NCBI GenBank assembly: GCA_011835815.1
Contig: GCA_011835815.1_3615.1
From: a phage
Length of the DNA stretch: 64,000 nt
Reading direction: 5' to 3' (one strand)
Made by a program: the position numbers and the translations under genes. The notes below the pieces were generated by a model. The model did no database searches and was not told the origin of the DNA. It saw only the letters and a program-made list of their open reading frames with translations. Position 1 is the stretch's first letter, and each line of letters opens with the position of its first letter. Positions 5,941-61,028 of the stretch are shown piece by piece.

Positions 5941-5994
5941 TTATCTTGAAGGGGCAAAGGTGCCCACACAACAACCAGAAGAGAGGAAAACACT

Positions 5995-6267: not shown

Positions 6268-6327
6268 TAAGATAATGACACGGGCCGGGAGGCCCACTAA
6301 TCAGAACCACACAAAGAGGTAAACATC

Positions 6328-7810: not shown

Positions 7811-7984
7811 GGCAACTATGCAAACGAATGGCATGGCGCGACGGAGTCGCGACATAATATAAAAGCAGTAACCATCACCCCCGTGATAGTTTGTCTGCAA
7901 TCTATTAATCAGATCATAGTTGCCTTGTATTCAGTTAATCATGACATAATAAGCAAGGCAACTATAGATCTGCTAATAGTTGCC
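7811..7984. repeat. four copies of GGCAACTAT in alternating orientation, including a perfect 12-bp inverted repeat
   Basis: Copies near 7811(+), 7916(-), 7957(+), 7976(-); ATAGTTGCCTTG...CAAGGCAACTAT arms; also a 19-bp direct repeat TGCAAACGAATG(G/T)CATGGC at about 7819 and 8047. Confidence 0.6.
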
Positions 7985-8075
7985 CTGCTTTTATATTATG
8001 TCATATATTATTAACTTGTTAATTGTTAACTTGCTAATTGTTTTCATGCAAACGAATGTCATGGCTTATCCTATC

Positions 8076-8147
8076 TGTGTAAACAGTTAAGGTGTAAACT
8101 ATCCAGGCGTAAACAGTCTATGCGGGAACAATCTATACGTGAACAGT
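8076..8147. repeat. three copies of GT(A/G)AACAGT at roughly 31-bp spacing
   Basis: GTAAACAGT near 8076 and 8108, GTGAACAGT near 8139; a related GTAAACTA between. Confidence 0.45.
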
Positions 8148-8759
8148 GAAACATGAAATAATAACAGTCGTTATTGTGTCGAAAGTGTATAAGGTGTCAG
8201 ACAAGTTTTTCTCCTCTTTGTCAAGTGCTGCATGAAAAATTTACAATCTGGTATGGTAGCATTTTTGCGGCCCGGTTTACATTCAGTTGTGTATGTATAA
8301 CCCTTGTTGTGTGGGCGTTTAGACGTCTGGACGGTCAGAAGTCCGCAGGTTAATATCTAATCTATTGGCTGCTAACTATATCCCACACAAATAGTAAGAA
8401 ATATAATTGTTATGTGCGTAAACGGTAACTCATGTTATCAATCCCTGTATGTATCGCCAGTGGTGCGCATAATAGGTATTATGTTAAATTGCCAGTAATG
8501 ATAACTATTCTCACAATGATAGGTATTCTCATTCACTCCCACAAGATAGGTTGCAAATGTTGTGCCACTGTGTGAACGGCCTCACCTATTAATTTGCCTC
8601 ACTGCCTCGATATTTGAGAATTGTTATAAGAATGAGAAGTATTCCCATTTCGTCCGCCTGGCAGCACTCCAGTCGCTACCGGCTCCTGACAGGGAGGCAC
8701 TCCTGTTGGTCAGGTCAAAATCGGGGTAGAACTGGGCCTGTTCAGATATTTCTGGCTGA

Positions 8760-9947
8760 CTCTTCAGGTCTGTGTGGGAAAAGCCAACCTCTCCGGCGGC
8801 GGGGAGGGGGTCAATTAAAAAATTTACGGGGTATATGAAGCGCTCTTCAGGTAAGGCATGTACTATGGGATGAGACCCTCTTCAGGCAATGATATTTGTG
8901 GGTGTGATATTTGCTGGAAAGCCAGATATGACGGGACTCCCGGCGGGGCAGGGGTAGTACAGACAGGGAAAATATGGGGATGTAGTTGGGTGAATTGATC
9001 GGGCAGGTAGAGTATGGAATATGTTACAAGTATGTTAAATATGGAGGGTGAATATCTGCAGGATTTGTGTGTAAAATCAAAGACTTAAGTAGTGTTGTGG
9101 TATTTTCTATAAATAATTCAAGTTTAATAGGTAATATTTGTCTCTATCCACTTTGTGTGGTAAACAAATTCAAATGAGATTGGTTTACAAGTGTATACAT
9201 AATATACAAATTAAAGATACAAGAAACCCCCCTCCCCCTTCGGCTACCATTCACCTTTTCCTCTGACTGGTACTTAAACACTTATTCAGACTCTTCAGGT
9301 TATCACCCATATACCATATGGCAGTGACTGGTGTCCTCCGGCCCCTCTTTCGTCACCCGTCCGCTTCGCCATGCTAATGCCATAGCTAATGGTTCGGTTG
9401 TTCACCCTGTTCACTCAGGTGTATCTCTATACCCCTTCAAACCGAAGAGAACAGAAAACCCGAATTACTCGGTAAAAGAAAAGAGAAGAACTTAATTTTA
9501 TCAGGATAGGCAAGAATGTCAAGGCATGACTGCTCACTAAACAAGCAAACAGTCATGTGTGGGAGGTAAGTGATTGTGGTGGTAGGAAATTTAGTTGAAA
9601 GATGTGTTATAGGTGCTTCCAGCACTTTAGCCTGGCAGCTAATTGTGTGTCAGTCCAGCGGTTCATCCTCTACTTCACTGAAATCAATGTTCATGGTCTC
9701 TTCCCAACCATCGATCTCAGCACAAGAGTGGAGTTCTTTAGGGTTTACTCCCAAAGCCTCAGCAACAGAGTCTATATTTAACACCCCTGGCAGGTATGAT
9801 TCATCGAATTCAAGGTAAATCAGGCCACGAGTGTTGTCAGCTCCACCAAATATCTCTATCTTCATAAAATCTCCTCTGGGAATGAAAGTGTGAACAGGGT
9901 TTTATACGTTCTAATGCACAGGAATTATACACGTTTGCCTCTTCAGG
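8760..9947. repeat. dispersed 9-mer CTCTTCAGG (5 copies)
   Basis: Exact copies near 8760, 8843, 8877, 9291 and 9939, all same orientation, all in non-coding DNA. Confidence 0.5.
9650..9865 (-). CDS. small highly acidic protein
   Basis: 71 aa, rich in D/E; most promoter-distal gene of the - strand block. Confidence 0.5.
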   Translation of the reverse strand: MKIEIFGGADNTRGLIYLEFDESYLPGVLNIDSVAEALGVNPKELHSCAEIDGWEETMNIDFSEVEDEPLD

Positions 9948-47487: not shown

Positions 47488-47534
47488 TCCCTGCTATTTT
47501 AAAGAAAATTGCCACACAAGGAGAATCAGGAGAT

Positions 47535-47885
47535 ATGAAAGATGGGGATAAGCTGCTATATCTTAAAGTCCCCCTTGAAATACTGTCTATGTCAAAAGTT
47601 TTGAATGACACAACTGGGGAGGTTGTTGTTCTTGACTTATATGACAAGATCGTATACTGCTACCTGCACAACTGGTATAAGCTTGGAGGAAATTCACGCT
47701 TCACACCCAGCACAAGGAAAATTGCAGCAGATGTTGGGATAAAGAAAACAAAAGCAGCAGCGTGCGTTAAAACTTTAGAATGTGCAGGAGTGGTTGAAAT
47801 ATCCACACAAGGGAGAGGTAAAAGATGTACATTTTCCAAAGTTTTGCCACCAGAAGAGGTTATTCGAATGTCAACAACTGGTTAG
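47535..47885 (+). CDS. putative winged-helix DNA-binding protein
   Basis: 116 aa; TRKIAADVGIKKTKAAACVKTLECAGVV is HTH-like; directly upstream of the iteron array. Confidence 0.45.
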   Translation: MKDGDKLLYLKVPLEILSMSKVLNDTTGEVVVLDLYDKIVYCYLHNWYKLGGNSRFTPSTRKIAADVGIKKTKAAACVKTLECAGVVEISTQGRGKRCTFSKVLPPEEVIRMSTTG

Positions 47886-47959
47886 ACCAGTAAAAACTTA
47901 AATATCTGTACTATAAGGATTCGTATGTTTTATGTTCGCTCTGGAACAGAGGTCAGTAA

Positions 47960-48042
47960 CTGTCCGTGATACGGACACTACTGTCCGTCACGCGGACACA
48001 TCTGCCCGTAATACGGACACTAACTGTCCGTGATACGGACAC
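47960..48042. repeat. four 19-bp palindromic iterons CTGTCCGTGATACGGACAC at 21-22 bp spacing
   Basis: Copies near 47960, 47981, 48002, 48024 (two exact, two with 1-3 changes); each holds GTCCG-N5-CGGAC; AT-rich tract with ATAACTAAA x2 and GTAC-rich palindromes follows. Confidence 0.7.
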
Positions 48043-48180
48043 ATAAAGAATATAACTAAAATAACTAAATAATAAAAAATAAAAGATCTAGTACTTATGG
48101 TACTAAGTACATATACTTAACTTATGTAGAATATACTAGATCCTAAGTACCATGTTTTAAAATTATTACTTACTATAGGT

Positions 48181-48430
48181 AGTGTCGGCCCTTCATTGGC
48201 ACTCGCCTACGAGGGGCGAGATGCCGGGCCTCCTTGGTGCACACAATAACAGAAGTGCATACATGCAGGTCTGTTAACATGTGTGGGAGCGAAGCGATAG
48301 CGCAGGCCAAAGGCCGAGCACTGATGTGGACCACCGACGAAAGCTTGCCAGCGCCGTAAGGAGTCGGTTGAGAGTCTCCCGCGCGAGCTTGGATGAAGTT
48401 TATGTGTGGAAACTGACAAGAAGGCCCCTA
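48181..48430. other. GC-rich structured island, candidate ncRNA
   Basis: About 250 bp with much higher GC than surroundings, no + strand ORF, nested hairpins such as CTCGCC-UACGAGG-GGCGAG and GGCC-AAA-GGCC. Confidence 0.35.
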
Positions 48431-48545
48431 AATCGCTCCACAGCTATATAAACTATACCAGGTAATGCAATCGCACCAGTTTGATAGAAAAGCTCGTTAC
48501 AAAGTGATACAGTGAGTTTTTCTATAACTTGAAGAGGAGGCAGCT

Positions 48546-49124
48546 ATGGGTTCACGCAAAGATGACCGTGAAAAGATTGCAAAACGTTATCAGAATGAAG
48601 AACAGATGGAGAAAACTTTCAAGTGGAAGCCAGGTTTCCAGCGTAATCATTCTAACGCTCGTGATCGTAAGCATCCGGATAAGTGGTTAACACCGCCAAA
48701 TGATGGCATGCAGGTTGGTGATGAGAAGGAGCTGTCACCTGGAAAAGATGGCAACTACATTCGCACTAAGGAAGCAGGTCCAAAGGATGACAGCTATCTT
48801 GTAGATAAGGTTCTTGATGGTATTGATGTAGATGTTGACACTGCACGAAACCTTTTTCTTGGTTGGTATCGTACAGGGTTTTTCGACATCAAGGCTATTC
48901 GTCGTGTTTGTGATATTAAAAAGTCTGCCTATGATGATGACTCTCTACATCGCACTCTGAGACAATACTCAGAGAGATACGGTCATCCAGTTATCACTCT
49001 TGACGATATTAACGAAGTGATGTATCATGCAGAGGTTGTTGCAGGTAGATTCGGTGATGCATATCTCGGTATTCTTTCTGCAAAAGATGAGGTAATGTTA
49101 AATAAAATTTACTATGAACGCTGA
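48546..49124 (+). CDS. hypothetical protein
   Basis: 192-aa ORF with GAGGAGG SD. Confidence 0.6.
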   Translation: MGSRKDDREKIAKRYQNEEQMEKTFKWKPGFQRNHSNARDRKHPDKWLTPPNDGMQVGDEKELSPGKDGNYIRTKEAGPKDDSYLVDKVLDGIDVDVDTARNLFLGWYRTGFFDIKAIRRVCDIKKSAYDDDSLHRTLRQYSERYGHPVITLDDINEVMYHAEVVAGRFGDAYLGILSAKDEVMLNKIYYER

Positions 49125-49323
49125 GGAGCGCTTAATGAACAACCCGGTAGCAAAGAACTGTAATAAGTTCAACAAGTCTGCAATTCACACTGACAGGAAA
49201 AAGAGCTGGTCTCCTGACATTGACGAGGAGCTTGAGAGTTACTTTGAAGACCTGGTCACTAATGCAGATGAGGTTGCGATTAAAGAATACGCAGACAGGA
49301 AGGATAAGGCCGGAATCTGTTGA
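49114..49323 (+). CDS. hypothetical protein
   Basis: 69-aa ORF overlapping preceding stop. Confidence 0.45.
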   Translation: MNAEERLMNNPVAKNCNKFNKSAIHTDRKKSWSPDIDEELESYFEDLVTNADEVAIKEYADRKDKAGIC

Positions 49324-49399
49324 CAAAAATAGTGTTACCTGATAAGATCTGCAATATGATGTGATGCAATTTTAACTTACGAGGTCTACAGGTAATGCT

Positions 49400-49642
49400 A
49401 TGTTTAAGGTTAAGCTCGTTTTTCGTTCCATGAATGAGGATTATTTAGAAGATGAAGGTGAATTTCGTGCACTGGATGATGCAATAGATTTTGCCAACGA
49501 CTTAGCTTGTATGAATACAGGTTATGGGCTATGTTGTTGGGATGGTGGTGTTCAGATCGGTGATAGCAAGATCTTCTACTTCTACCCTGAGCCTGATAAC
49601 AAACAAATTAAGTATGTTTTATTTATTTGTGCTTTACAATGA
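49400..49642 (+). CDS. hypothetical protein
   Basis: 80-aa ORF. Confidence 0.45.
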   Translation: MFKVKLVFRSMNEDYLEDEGEFRALDDAIDFANDLACMNTGYGLCCWDGGVQIGDSKIFYFYPEPDNKQIKYVLFICALQ

Positions 49643-49699
49643 GGTTGTTTTCGTGTATCATGATGAATATCCAATTTAAAGATGAATTTGATGGCTTTA

Positions 49700-49930
49700 T
49701 CTCTGGATGCTTTGAAACAGGGTTCGGAGAAGGCTGAGTTCCCTTAGAGGGCTTGATAGTGCACCACACTTAAAATGGTAGGGGCAGCCAGCACATGACG
49801 ATGTGACCCCAGCCAACCTGTAATAAGGTCGAGCCTGAGCGCGGTAATGGGTATAGCTGGAAAACCCACTTGTTGGGTCTTGCTGGTCCAGGACGCTGGA
49901 CAAGTCGCAGGGAATACCACCCTGCGGCGA
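49700..49930. other. second GC-rich structured island, candidate ncRNA
   Basis: About 230 bp GC-rich, no + strand ORF; all three - strand frames stay open (few stops), as expected for GC-rich non-coding sequence. Confidence 0.3.
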
Positions 49931-49932
49931 AC

Positions 49933-49961
49933 TTGACAATCAGTATTTGCTGTGATAAAAT
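49933..49961 (+). promoter_or_regulatory. sigma70-like promoter
   Basis: TTGACA-N17-TAAAAT upstream of the 49990 gene. Confidence 0.55.
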
Positions 49962-49989
49962 CCACCTATCACGTGATAATGGAGGAAAC

Positions 49990-50328
49990 ATGGCGGATAC
50001 AACTAAAAAGCGTCGCCGTAGAGGCAGACCTCTGAAAGAGGAGTCCAACGCCATTCAGCTAGAGAAGAACATCCTTGATATGAAGGAATCTTTTATAGCG
50101 ATGGTTCCAGAAGCTCATAAAGTTTTAAGAGAGCTGATGTTGGACCCGAAAACCAAACAAAATATTCGTCAAAGCATTGCAGAGTATGTTCTTGATAAGG
50201 CAGACCGAATGCAGGAAGAATATGATGAGATGTTTGGTGAAGAGGAAGAGGTGGTAGTAGAAGAGGCTGAAAAACCAGCACCTTTTATGCCGTTTACCAC
50301 AGAAATACAGCCTGTTAGCAATAGCTAA
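49990..50328 (+). CDS. hypothetical protein with basic N-terminus and acidic C-terminus
   Basis: ATG at 49990 with GGAGGA SD (track ORF starts 49870); MADTTKKRRRRGRPLKEE. Confidence 0.55.
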   Translation: MADTTKKRRRRGRPLKEESNAIQLEKNILDMKESFIAMVPEAHKVLRELMLDPKTKQNIRQSIAEYVLDKADRMQEEYDEMFGEEEEVVVEEAEKPAPFMPFTTEIQPVSNS

Positions 50329-50337
50329 AATATTTTC

Positions 50338-50366
50338 TTGACAAACTTTGCTTAACAGTGTAATAT
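50338..50366 (+). promoter_or_regulatory. sigma70-like promoter for the tRNA cluster
   Basis: TTGACA-N17-TAATAT about 60 bp upstream of the first tRNA. Confidence 0.55.
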
Positions 50367-50424
50367 TGTAAACATGGTCTCCCACCTTTTCTGGCGGCTA
50401 AGGTGTAAAAGAAAGCCACCCAGT

Positions 50425-50499
50425 GCCCTGTTAGCTTAGTGGATAAAGCAGCGGCCTTCTAAGCCGTTGACACTGGTTCGAGTCCAGTACGGGGTGCCA
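50425..50499 (+). tRNA. tRNA-Arg (anticodon UCU)
   Basis: Hand-folded cloverleaf: acceptor GCCCTGT/ACGGGGT, anticodon loop CTTCTAA, T-loop GGTTCGAGTCC, encoded CCA. Confidence 0.75.
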
Positions 50500-50629
50500 A
50501 GTTCTTTTTAATGTAGCTTACTTTAGCAGAGTAAATCTTCGGCAAGTGGCGGTAACCACTTTACCGATACCTCATAGTTAGTGGTGAGAACACTAGCTAT
50601 TTTAAAAAGAATTTAAATATTAGTATTTA

Positions 50630-50717
50630 GGTGAGTTAATTCCGTAGGGGTAGCGGGGCAGACTGTAAATCTGTTATCATTGCGATTCGGGTGGTTCGAC
50701 TCCATCACTCACCACCA
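50630..50717 (+). tRNA. tRNA-Tyr (anticodon GUA), class II
   Basis: Acceptor GGTGAGT/ACTCACC, anticodon arm GCAGA-CTGTAAA-TCTGT, long variable arm, T-loop GGTTCGACTCC, CCA; D-arm register uncertain. Confidence 0.65.
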
Positions 50718-50821
50718 AATTTATATTTTTAAATGCATAAATCATACAGATAATGGCATTGATATTTATCGTCGTTTATACTAGTCACTAACTGCTCGAA
50801 AATCAGTGTCATTATCAGTAT

Positions 50822-50912
50822 AATTTATAAAGGAGGGTAGGGAGCAATGGTGCTCAAGCGGTCTTGAAAACCGCCCCGTTGAGGATGACTCGATGATGGT
50901 TCGATTCCATTA
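50822..50912 (+). tRNA. tRNA-Ser (anticodon UGA), class II
   Basis: Acceptor GGAGGGT/ACTCTCC, anticodon arm GCGGT-CTTGAAA-ACCGC, long variable arm, T-loop GGTTCGATTCC, CCA. Confidence 0.65.
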
Positions 50913-51020
50913 CTCTCCGCCACATTGTTGACCTTGTAATTAAGCGAAAGCCGGAAGCAGAACCGGATTATCAAATGTTACAGTCGTCATCGCCGACTAG
51001 CAACATGGTCAACATACTGA

Positions 51021-51119
51021 GCTAGGTAAGCCCTTTGGCAAGGGCGAGGATTTTTAATCCTGAAAATAGACGAGGTAGTCGTTGAATACATAGGTGGTTC
51101 GATTCCATCGCCTAGCACC
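51021..51119 (+). tRNA. atypical tRNA-like gene (about 97 nt), anticodon possibly UUU (Lys)
   Basis: Perfect acceptor GCTAGGT/GCCTAGC, D-arm GCCC-TTTGGCAA-GGGC, anticodon-like hairpin GAGGA-TTTTTAA-TCCTG, canonical T-arm; but about 30 nt inserted between anticodon stem and T-stem. Confidence 0.4.
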
Positions 51120-51124
51120 TTTTT

Positions 51125-51200
51125 GCTGATGTAGCACAATCGGTAGTGCAATTGATTTGTAATCAATAGGTTGTAGGTTCAAGTCCTGCCATCAGCACCA
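51125..51200 (+). tRNA. tRNA-Thr (anticodon UGU)
   Basis: Acceptor GCTGATG/CATCAGC, D-stem GCAC/GTGC, anticodon arm ATTGA-TTTGTAA-TCAAT, T-loop GGTTCAAGTCC, CCA. Confidence 0.75.
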
Positions 51201-51201
51201 A

Positions 51202-51276
51202 GGCCCTGTAGCTGGAAGGTTCAAGCAAGCGACTCATAATCGCCAGACGGTGGTTCAATTCCACCCAGGGCCACCA
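51202..51276 (+). tRNA. tRNA-Met or Ile2 (anticodon CAU)
   Basis: Acceptor GGCCCTG/CAGGGCC, anticodon loop CTCATAA, T-loop GGTTCAATTCC, CCA; not initiator-like. Confidence 0.7.
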
Positions 51277-51287
51277 AATAGTAAATA

Positions 51288-51364
51288 CTCCGCGTAGCTC
51301 AGCTTGGTAGAGCGCCTGATTTGGGATCAGGAGGTCGAGTGTTCGAATCACTCCGTGGAGACCA
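51288..51364 (+). tRNA. tRNA-Pro (anticodon UGG)
   Basis: Acceptor CTCCGCG/CGTGGAG, D-stem GCTC/GAGC, anticodon arm CCTGA-TTTGGGA-TCAGG, T-loop GTTCGAATC, CCA. Confidence 0.75.
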
Positions 51365-52468: not shown

Positions 52469-52893
52469 TGTCTAAGATTTACGGACCGTGTTCTGAAAAG
52501 CAGAAGATGATCCTCGAAAACGATGCAGATATTTTGGTAATCGGCGGTGCCGCAGGGTCTGGCAAGTCGTTCCTCTTGCAGTTGATGCCGCTTAAAATTA
52601 TTGATGACCCCCACAGCTCTGTGGTTATGTTCCGAAGAACAACCCCACAGTTGGAAGGTGAGGGTGGGCTATGGCCTAAAGCAGTAGCTATTTATAGTGA
52701 TCTGCCTGAAAACATTAAGCCAAAGTTCAGAGAGAAGGATCATAAGTTCATTTTCCCACGGTTTGATCCGAGCACTGGCAAGTGGGATAGAAGCAAAAAG
52801 GGAGCTGTTGTAAAATACTGCCACATGGAGTATGTCCAAGATAAGCTTAACCATCAAGGTCTTGAGTACACCATGGTTTGCTTCGATGAGGGT
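52468..52893 (+). CDS. terL: terminase large subunit, exon 1 (ATPase N-terminus)
   Basis: Walker A VIGGAAGSGKS and Walker B-like MVCFDEG; reading frame is broken by a stop just after FDEG where the intron begins. Confidence 0.8.
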
Positions 52894-53213
52894 TAATTTG
52901 TAGCTCTCGTAAAACCTCCCTAATTGCGGGGAAATCTTTACTATTAATACCACCAACCTGTCATGGTAACATGATAGAGGCTTCGAAGAGAGATCGAAGG
53001 TATGGTAACAGTGTGTTAATTTAGATAATCCGCAGCGAAGCATCCGAGAGGATGAACGTTCAACGACTAGTCGAAAGACGTAGAATCAAGCGATTCGAAA
53101 CGGGAGGGTAAGCGGTTGTTGTCGCTTATAAGATATAGTCTGGTCTGCATGGAGACATGCAGCTGCCTGAAAAATGGCGGGGCAAGACTAGCGACCTTGC
53201 CCGAACATAGACG
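52894..53213 (+). other. group I self-splicing intron (no ORF) within terL
   Basis: Conserved core elements in order: P AATTGCGGGGAAA, Q AATCCGCAGC, R GTTCAACGACTA, S AAGATATAGTC; exon ends in U that can pair with internal guide GCTCTC; intron ends in G; P9-like hairpins; boundaries +/- 3 nt. Confidence 0.8.
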
Positions 53214-60569: not shown

Positions 60570-61028
60570 ATGCTAAAGGTTAAATGTCAAACAAGGTTCA
60601 ACCTAAAGCGTTTAGATCGCTTCTACAAAGAACTTGTGAGACTTGAAAGTAAAACAATAACCTACGGCTTTTATGACGAACCTCACCCGTCAGGCTTAAA
60701 TATGGCAACATTGGCAGCCATTCACAACTTCGGTTGGAACGGGCTGCCTGTTCGCAATTTCATGGAGACAGCTTTTGCATTTCACAGCACTCAACTACAG
60801 ACCTTGACAGAAAAATTGTTGAGAGCTATGGCTAGGGGATCAAGTGCAGAGGCTATTCTTAAGCAGATGGGGGACACAGGGGCCAAAGCTATCCAGTTTG
60901 TTATTGAGGCTGGGCAGTTTAGTAATCCTACTGTTAGCGAGCAGTGGGCACAAGAGAAAGGCTTCAACGAGGCTATGCGGCATTACGATGTGCTGCTTGA
61001 ATCTGCAACCTTTAAAATCGGACAGTAA
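60570..61028 (+). CDS. head-tail joining / neck protein (putative)
   Basis: ATG at 60570 with GAGGGA SD; 152 aa. Confidence 0.45.
   Translation: MLKVKCQTRFNLKRLDRFYKELVRLESKTITYGFYDEPHPSGLNMATLAAIHNFGWNGLPVRNFMETAFAFHSTQLQTLTEKLLRAMARGSSAEAILKQMGDTGAKAIQFVIEAGQFSNPTVSEQWAQEKGFNEAMRHYDVLLESATFKIGQ

Follow-up and report, generated by a model that had tools for sequence, protein, structure and literature searches.

In plasmid RSF1010, the iterons and AT-rich segment of oriV are followed by hairpins, ssiA and ssiB, that work as single-stranded DNA, and ssiA contains a CCGAAGG mini-hairpin (PMC13037366; PMC8567376). The plasmid's own RepB' primase reads both signals, each of which is a 40-nt inverted repeat, one per strand. 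The DnaG-dependent origins of phages G4, St-1, and alpha3 comprise a hairpin cluster on single-stranded DNA in which mini-hairpins of the GCGAAAGC type exclude single-strand binding protein (PMC13037366). Mini-hairpin motifs of the form GCG-N(N)-AGC or CCG-N(N)-AGG are reported, in a 2026 review, for these complementary-strand origins as well as for RSF1010 ssiA and the N4 hairpin promoter, and the RNA counterpart of GCGAAAGC is reported to be much less stable than the DNA (39 versus 76.5 degrees C; PMC13037366). At the transcription-primed origins of ColE1 (RNA II) and of phages T4 and T7, a long structured transcript or R-loop adjoins the site of initiation, and these origins have neither iterons nor an initiator. 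Beyond origins, REP/BIME elements are intergenic mosaics of short GC-rich hairpins with few conserved linker types and variable copy number and order, and P2/P4 cos and the PLE/ICP1 pair offer examples of a non-coding element in which a phage and a small dependent element resemble each other more than in any of their proteins.

The window analysed here (the whole stretch of 64,000 nucleotides) belongs to an rV5-like Vequintavirus. A 661-nt query around the island that is our subject matched 119 phage records at 90–100% identity, all of them rV5-like Vequintavirus genomes of about 130–143 kb. Phages of this kind are used in the typing and biocontrol of E. coli O157. Eighteen GenBank records (MG0656xx) are named "Campylobacter phage" with C. 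jejuni as host; their locus is 98–100% identical to that of E. coli rV5-like phages, and the host assignment of these records looks doubtful. An initiator-like gene, four repeats, and an AT-rich spacer immediately precede the island, and an ORF on the + strand (48546–49124) follows it, in an arrangement that makes the locus a candidate origin:

47535–47885, + strand: 116-aa winged-helix protein, a probable origin-binding initiator from its Pfam and PHROG matches (rV5 ORF79)
47951–48042, no strand: four 17-bp palindromic repeats TGTCCGT-NNN-ACGGACA at spacings of 21, 21, and 22 bp (iterons or operators; repeat search)
48046–48180, no strand: AT-rich spacer of 135 bp with about 30% G+C, inverted repeats, and two GATC sites; candidate DNA unwinding element (composition and repeat search)
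48187–48230, + strand: 5' hairpin P1, with GGCCC/GGGCC, a 6-nt bulge, GGCA/TGCC, CTCGCC/GGCGAG, and the loop TACGAGG
48240–48285, + strand: central hairpin P2 (predicted fold), with the closing helix CACACA/TGTGTG, then TAACAG/CTGTTA and TGCA-TACA-TGCA; apex variable
48280–48323, + strand: TGTGTGGG box and block E with GCGAAGC (48289–48295) and GGCC-AAA-GGCC (48305–48315)
48324–48386, + strand: ATGTGGA box, F hairpin, and tail GAGNCTCCCGCGCG (48372–48385)
48387–48480, no strand: fast-evolving 3' flank with a third TGTGTGG (48403–48409), a AAGGCCCCTAAATCGC box (48421–48436), and a 20-nt box (48458–48477); boxes aligned with satellites

The initiator-like protein matches Pfam HTH_36 and DUF6945, both just under the curated cut-off, and PHROG 12838 "replication initiation protein" (2.5e-80); it is confined to the same 119 Vequintavirus records as the island, with no relatives outside those. 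No replication origin has been mapped in rV5, which encodes a T7-like Pol A and a gp4-type primase-helicase (PMC3606486). Initiator, four repeats, AT-rich spacer, and hairpin block together would provide a concrete candidate origin for rV5-like phages.

The island shares with RSF1010 oriV the succession of iterons, AT-rich segment, and hairpins, and the motif class of ssiA is represented here by CCGTAAGG and GCGAAGC in the island and by CCGAAGG in satellite-like plasmids described below. It differs from the RSF1010 signals in having no sequence homology to them and in forming a 200-nt block of several hairpins on one strand, with putative activity and no known primase of the RepB' type. The satellite cassettes often consist of three hairpins followed by CTG and in this respect recall the G4-type origins; in the phage island, however, CTG is not conserved, the genome is double-stranded with its own T7-type primase-helicase, and there is no sequence similarity. 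The replication proteins of rV5 are likewise of the T7 type (PMC3606486), but no promoter is evident at the island that would align it with the transcription-primed origins. Like REP/BIME elements, the region is a mosaic of hairpin cassettes, but it shows no sequence similarity to them and no match to E. coli chromosomes, and its E/F core (block E and the F hairpin) is single-copy and strongly constrained. As for P2/P4 cos and PLE/ICP1, the non-coding element is more similar between phage and small, dependent-looking element than any proteins, except that the element does not lie at genome termini and that helper dependence is suggested by gene content. In our comparison, the island is closest in layout and loop chemistry to RSF1010 oriV or the G4-type origins, and it is a member of neither by sequence or by a conserved primase start site.

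The sequence-only reading had singled out the island for its high G+C content, and this amounts to 0.568 (48181–48430) against 0.429 in the whole window, with a peak of 0.585 over the 200 nt at 48200–48399 and flanks of 0.30–0.43. The hairpins it had named are all present at the positions given: GGCCC (48187–48191) pairs with GGGCC (48226–48230), CTCGCC (48202–48207) pairs with GGCGAG (48215–48220), and GGCC-AAA-GGCC is found at 48305–48315. Folding of the island is more stable than that of 200 dinucleotide shuffles, with z = -2.59 (+ strand) and -2.38 (- strand) under RNA parameters and z = -3.16 for the + strand under DNA parameters. The same reading had seen no + strand ORF, which is literally incorrect (ORFs of 31, 41, and 56 aa exist), but none of them is conserved; the minus-strand ORF that it had noted exists (70 aa, 48207–48419) and is not conserved either. 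Its proposal of a structured RNA gene was borne out as to structure, by two helices with compensatory changes and three constrained blocks, but not as to an RNA gene, for which Rfam match, promoter, and terminator were all missing. A horizontal connection, which it had read from composition, does exist in that the core is shared with plasmid-like elements at 84–85% identity (the protein common to both is only 45% identical), but the high G+C is a consequence of the hairpins and not a signature of foreign DNA, because the satellites have 44% G+C overall and their arrays 50–55%. A fragment of a host gene, finally, is ruled out, with no chromosomal match by blastn among 5,426 complete E. coli genomes. 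The island is thus a real, conserved feature that is mostly unannotated; rV5 annotates part of it as "hypothetical protein ORF 78", and most other genomes leave it without annotation.

Selective constraint was measured by comparing the window with a metagenome relative (L025). Across five flanking genes, third codon positions differ at 145 of 749 sites (19%) and first and second positions at about 5%, against which the parts of the island diverge as follows:

48181–48233, 5' hairpin: 1.9%
48234–48279, central part: 17%
48280–48323, block E: 4.5%
48324–48386, F plus tail: 3.2%
48387–48430, first part of the 3' flank: 11%
48431–48480, 3' flank with boxes: 18%

Three blocks diverge at or below the level of first and second codon positions, and because divergence is low only there, we take the conserved feature to consist of three sub-elements within 48182–48386; from 48387 on, the sequence evolves at a near-neutral rate. 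P1 is preceded by an invariant GTGTC (48182–48186), and the last ~15 nt of the spacer before it vary freely among phages.

Two of the helices, F and P1, are supported by compensatory changes, which the sequence-only reading had proposed to look for in related phages. The F hairpin pairs ACCGAC (48333–48338) with GTCGGT (48363–48368) and encloses GCT-TGCC-AGC and CC-GTAA-GG. Over 12 distinct sequences, 95.5% of cells in the F domain are paired and 6 pairs have changed on both sides. In 500 shuffles, the observed percentage of pairing, the numbers of pairs and of cells with two-sided changes, and the covariation score were never reached; additional pair types, by contrast, were no more numerous than chance allows (158 of 500 shuffles, not significant). 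When the partner strand was slid by 1–3 columns, pairing fell to 14–57%. At one F position, most phages have an A:T pair, phage Aya (L038) has G.T, and the satellites have G:C, a series that fits folding of the + strand only, and in type II satellites the 6-bp stem is replaced by an unrelated 8-bp stem, GTCCGGAT/ATCCGGAC. The F loop is conserved while its stem covaries. P1 comprises 15 base pairs that are 100% paired in 8 distinct sequences, and the only two stem differences, both in satellite L002, are both compensatory. In P2, rV5 and Murica delete 18 nt of the apex (48243–48260) and leave an 8-bp closing helix CACACATG/CATGTGTG, and phages B9-1 and SYGMH1 change an A:T pair to G.T. For block E, RNAalifold found no stable consensus structure in 12 phage sequences; this block cannot be aligned between phage, type I, and type II satellites, and each version carries a GCG-N(N)-AGC motif.

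The plasmid-like elements emerged from the blastn comparison with the 5,426 complete E. coli genomes, in which partial island matches (84–85%) were found on four small plasmids. PLSDB yielded three further records (two small plasmids and one phage-sized record of 137.6 kb), and one metagenome pattern scan added three satellite contigs of circular size and two phage contigs; exact-pattern scans for wider homologues returned none in IMG/VR viral contigs and chance matches only in GTDB genomes. Altogether, about ten circular E. coli plasmids or metagenome contigs of 13–15 kb have the E/F core, each of them in one copy (L002–L008, L013, L015, and L017: NZ_CP020521.1, NZ_CP035869.1, NZ_CP178698.1, CP148565.1, CP134895.1, NZ_CP043822.1, and three metagenome contigs), and a 39.6 kb record holds three copies of the satellite element. 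These elements are non-mobilizable by PLSDB prediction, carry about 2.9 kb of non-coding DNA each, and encode a major capsid protein, a tape measure, a "baseplate" protein, and a tail-completion/Neck1 protein, with no terminase or portal annotated. The Neck1 protein is 45% identical to the one encoded at 60576–60998 of the window, and the major capsid protein is only 22% identical to those of ~145 kb myoviruses. The 13–15 kb plasmids look like undescribed satellites of rV5-like phages, and their gene content suggests dependence on a Vequintavirus helper. Neither the island nor the satellites were found described in the literature searched on rV5, Vequintavirus, or phage satellites. Through the island, a genus of virulent phages is connected with satellite-like plasmids that make up an undescribed set.

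Each satellite has its own set of palindromic repeats and its own HTH protein downstream, both of which differ between satellites, and the E/F core is kept. The repeats are followed by an array of hairpin cassettes and then by the ATGTGGA box, the F hairpin, and the GAGTCTCCCGCGC tail that the phage has too; relative to the repeats, the core has the side and orientation that it has in the phage. Cassettes each end in (C/T)TGTGTGGG and vary between elements in number, presence, and order; paralogous three-hairpin cassettes keep their structure with different sequence, one hairpin is found in opposite orientations in different satellites, and L002 carries a 5' hairpin of the phage type as well. 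Searches with an F covariance model find exactly one copy per replicon, with scores of 91.5 bits for the window (48325–48385), 86–89 for type I satellites, 51 for type II, and about 20 for loci that match by pattern only. Single-strand structure and position are thus conserved, and the element is present as one copy per replicon that phages share with satellites.

Our leading, tentative reading is that the island is an origin-flanking hairpin signal of plus-strand DNA, of the ssi type, that may serve as a site of priming or helicase loading. The origin status of the locus, the DNA nature of the folded molecule, and a role of the site in priming or loading are all inferred. In such a scheme, the 116-aa winged-helix protein would bind the four palindromic repeats and open the adjoining AT-rich spacer. 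Unwinding would then move rightward, and the + strand, as lagging-strand template of the rightward fork, would turn single-stranded and fold into small hairpins of high stability, namely P1, the mini-hairpins GCGAAGC and CCGTAAGG, and the three-way F element. Free of single-strand binding protein, these hairpins would mark the site of replisome loading or of the first primer, for either the phage's T7-type helicase-primase or the host primase, and so act as an ssi-like signal. Satellites could use the same machinery, because they have the same E/F core despite having their own repeats and initiator. If replisome recruitment is indeed the function, the block would be a point of competition between helper and satellite and an engineering handle for either.

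Several observations are consistent with this proposal. Initiator-like gene, four repeats at 21–22 bp, AT-rich spacer, and island follow one another in this order; P1, E, and F diverge far less (1.9–4.5%) than third codon positions (about 19%); and the compensatory changes in F and P1 include the A:T/G.T/G:C series that is compatible with + strand folding alone. The mini-hairpin DNA motif S-C-G-N1-2-A-G-S occurs 4 times on the + strand of 48181–48395, compared with 0.57 in dinucleotide shuffles (P = 0.0014), and not at all on the - strand, so that stable one-strand hairpins with mini-hairpin motifs, as known from ssi signals, are present here, and folding with DNA parameters gave the strongest z score (-3.16). 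The single F copy per replicon, the matching side and orientation of the satellite core, and the T7-like Pol A and gp4-type primase-helicase of rV5, for which no origin is mapped (PMC3606486), also fit.

Other observations weigh against the origin-flank signal. The palindromic repeats could be repressor operators, with the origin itself a candidate, and the same covariation would be expected for RNA, since the region is probably transcribed, with no terminator before 48546. A conserved primase start site, be it CTG as for DnaG and G4-type origins or GTC, the start triplet of T7-type primases, was not found in the phage island: CTG at 48321–48323 is CTA in 9 of the 12 phages, the GTC in the tail has T, C, or A at its middle position, and the invariant GTGTC at 48182–48186 offers one site, which is not above chance. 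With at least 200 nt of hairpins, the block exceeds known ssi signals in length; a cassette of the same style lies away from the repeats (9607–9650), behind a possible minus-strand gene; some satellite cassettes carry their GNA-loop hairpins on the other strand; and a crude count over all possible stems revealed no strand bias of G.T versus A.C mismatches (23 versus 21).

The main competitor, possible though doubtful in our view, is a structured RNA on the + strand, either a cis-acting part of an early read-through transcript (with a role in processing, stability, or expression) or an RNA processed from it. Such a transcript would span the initiator-like gene, the island, the ORF at 48546–49124, and the tRNA cluster. 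The neighbouring genes and the downstream tRNAs all share the + strand, a sigma-70 promoter is annotated ahead of the HTH gene in rV5, and no sigma-70-like promoter or intrinsic terminator is predicted on either strand in 47800–48900 (nor any terminator-like site in 47800–49000), because of which the island is probably read through from that upstream promoter. Covariation with G.U intermediates on the + strand, an apical deletion in P2 that preserves the closing helix in a manner typical of RNA evolution, the conserved F loop on a covarying stem, and GNRA-type loops (GTAA, GGAA, GCGA) would all suit an RNA. In 17 of 21 arrays, moreover, folding is better for the + than for the - strand, an advantage that is confounded by G/T-rich composition.

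Against an RNA, no Rfam family matched in phage or satellites, no promoter-like site lies directly upstream of the island (the 15 nt before P1 are variable), and no terminator follows it. At gathering thresholds, Rfam 15 recovered only tRNAs and a group I intron from the whole window; even at E<=10 nothing credible covered the island within 47800–50500 (rli43, 22.9 bits against a threshold of 100), and three whole satellites gave no match at E<=0.5. Rfam holds RNAI, a plasmid copy-control RNA, and families of plasmid copy-control RNAs had no match at the island. A known RNA family is rejected on these results, as is an independent small-RNA gene, for which neither promoter nor terminator of its own was found flanking the island and whose sequence just upstream of P1 is not conserved. 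Most loops of the island are either GAA/GTA triloops with a closing C:G pair or G-N-N-A tetraloops that sit on two G-C pairs; the triloops and the GNNA loops outside the GNRA type, which account for many of the loops, are typical of DNA (PMC13037366). Across the phage island and the satellite E/F blocks, by our reading, 7 of 7 G...A loops fit the DNA motif and 3 of 7 the RNA GNRA motif, and the loop types thus appear to fit DNA mini-hairpins better than RNA. The satellite arrays, too, show an enrichment of c(GNA)g-loop hairpins, on a strand that depends on the cassette. If the element acts as RNA instead, it would form a new family absent from Rfam.

In the satellites, the strong sigma-70-like promoters are found beyond the downstream end of the array and face away from it, which speaks against the RNA reading. 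Two satellite hairpins, the one furthest left in the array (GCCTAAAGAG..CTCTTTAGGC) and one with a C/G run (for example L008 1328–1356 and 1243–1265), are terminator-like on the minus strand, a hint that the arrays may be transcribed leftward, towards the repeats.

A further proposal, speculative and rather unlikely as it stands, is that the E/F core is an undescribed single-stranded nucleic-acid "handle" that would link plasmid-borne satellites to the replication or expression machinery of rV5-like phages, with phage and parasites competing for it.

It is unlikely that the island is simply a mosaic of small palindromic cassettes, akin to REP/BIME, that spread and shuffle in non-coding regions and have a generic role (3' end protection, insulation, or absorption of supercoils) or none. 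Cassettes of the satellite arrays do differ in presence, absence, and order, each ending (C/T)TGTGTGGG, their three-hairpin paralogs keep structure despite different sequence, and one hairpin occurs in both orientations. In the window, a two-hairpin cassette (GGTGCTTCCAGCAC and TTAGC..GCTAA, followed by TTGTGTGT) lies at 9607–9650, just past what by eye is the apparent end of a possible minus-strand gene. It matches satellite L015 (12769–12788) at 20 of 20 nt, because of which the cassette family must be taken to occur outside the origin flank as well. The E/F core, however, is single-copy, and its divergence far below neutral in phages and its same relative place in every satellite point to a specific function. 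No similarity to E. coli chromosomal repeats was found in the 5,426 genomes, and membership in REP/BIME proper is rejected for this reason and for the single copy of F.

More improbable still is a site for protein binding to duplex DNA, such as a packaging signal shared between helper and satellite, a site for recombination or multimer resolution, or an operator array. In P2/P4, the cis element common to helper and satellite is the packaging site, and the invariant boxes ATGTGGA, GAGNCTCCCGCGCG, and CCCCTAAAT as well as the invertible 20-nt box resemble protein sites. This box, CCAGGTAATGCAATCGCACC at 48458–48477, is the reverse complement of the satellite box GGTGCAATTGCATTACCTG, and its inversion relative to the E/F core between phage and satellites suggests a duplex protein-binding site there. 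Stems covary with pairing kept, however, although a protein site in duplex DNA would have no need of this. Nor are the genome termini at the island: the terminal repeat of phage Gotham, 459 bp long and annotated as repeat_region, corresponds to window ~8200–8658, where five records start or end. A pac, cos, or terminal-repeat function of the island is rejected on this basis.

That the island encodes a small protein can be dismissed as scarcely credible: rV5, ECML-10, and some BASEL genomes do list the 56-aa ORF78 of rV5 (window 48281–48451, + strand) as a hypothetical protein, and the indels among phages (18 and 3 nt) preserve the frame, but neither it nor the 70-aa minus-strand ORF has a Pfam or PHROG match, its GTG start has no preceding Shine-Dalgarno sequence, compensatory stem changes alter its residues, and the frame is not conserved in satellites, where type I elements have 1-nt indels just upstream of the hairpin and type II elements (L007, L015) keep the hairpin with stops in all frames, the equivalent frame ending after four codons.

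A few other candidate signals were rejected. By eye, 48159–48181 matches the T7 promoter consensus at 16 of 23 positions, but its core CTATAGG varies among phages (CTATGGG, CCATAGG, TTGTTGG, and others). No single-subunit RNA polymerase of the T7/SP6 type has been reported for rV5 (PMC3606486). An SP6-like ATTTAGG-N4-CTATAGG on the satellite minus strand proved to be one of three repeated CYTAAAT boxes. The sequence TGTGGAAAC at 48405–48413 agrees at 8 of 9 positions with the DnaA box consensus; it has no equivalent in satellites, and the TGTGTGGG boxes miss the critical A. By eye, the GGTGCAATTGC box agrees with a dif/cer-like Xer site at no more than 6 of 11 and 5 of 7 positions. TGTGTGG is no special signal of the island, being over-represented across the window (31 versus 9 expected). 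Several of its copies are antisense, with the gene-sense strand then reading CCACACA(A) 5–20 nt upstream of a ribosome-binding site and often right after a GC-rich hairpin (for example at 701–707, 5964–5970, 6307–6313, and 47512–47518); this looks like a conserved 5' leader motif, of which the sense strand of the island has the complementary orientation (UGUGUGG).

Elsewhere in the window, 8200–8658 lies inside a largely ORF-poor region (7900–9400) and is a probable direct terminal repeat or genome end of this phage. Within it, a 24-nt stretch, GATATTTGAGAATTGTTATAAGAA (8609–8632), is 23/24 identical in every satellite checked; this match, separate from the E/F core and inside the Gotham terminal repeat, is a candidate shared packaging signal. 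In the large non-coding region beside the terminal repeat, 8078–8150 contains a second set of short direct repeats (about 5 copies of GTAAACAG / GTGAACAG variants). A second G+C-rich stretch (51–54%) without annotated gene spans 49700–49935 (RNA fold z = -1.85); it has no match in Rfam or E. coli and is absent from the satellites. Just downstream of it, a near-consensus promoter (49933–49961, 11 of 12 matches) precedes an ORF (49987–50328) and the tRNA cluster (50425–51364). Rfam places a tRNA at 50630–50714 that is absent from the ARAGORN calls, which for their part include a 99-nt gene with a four-base anticodon (51021–51119), and a group I intron lies at 52884–53162 (84 bits).
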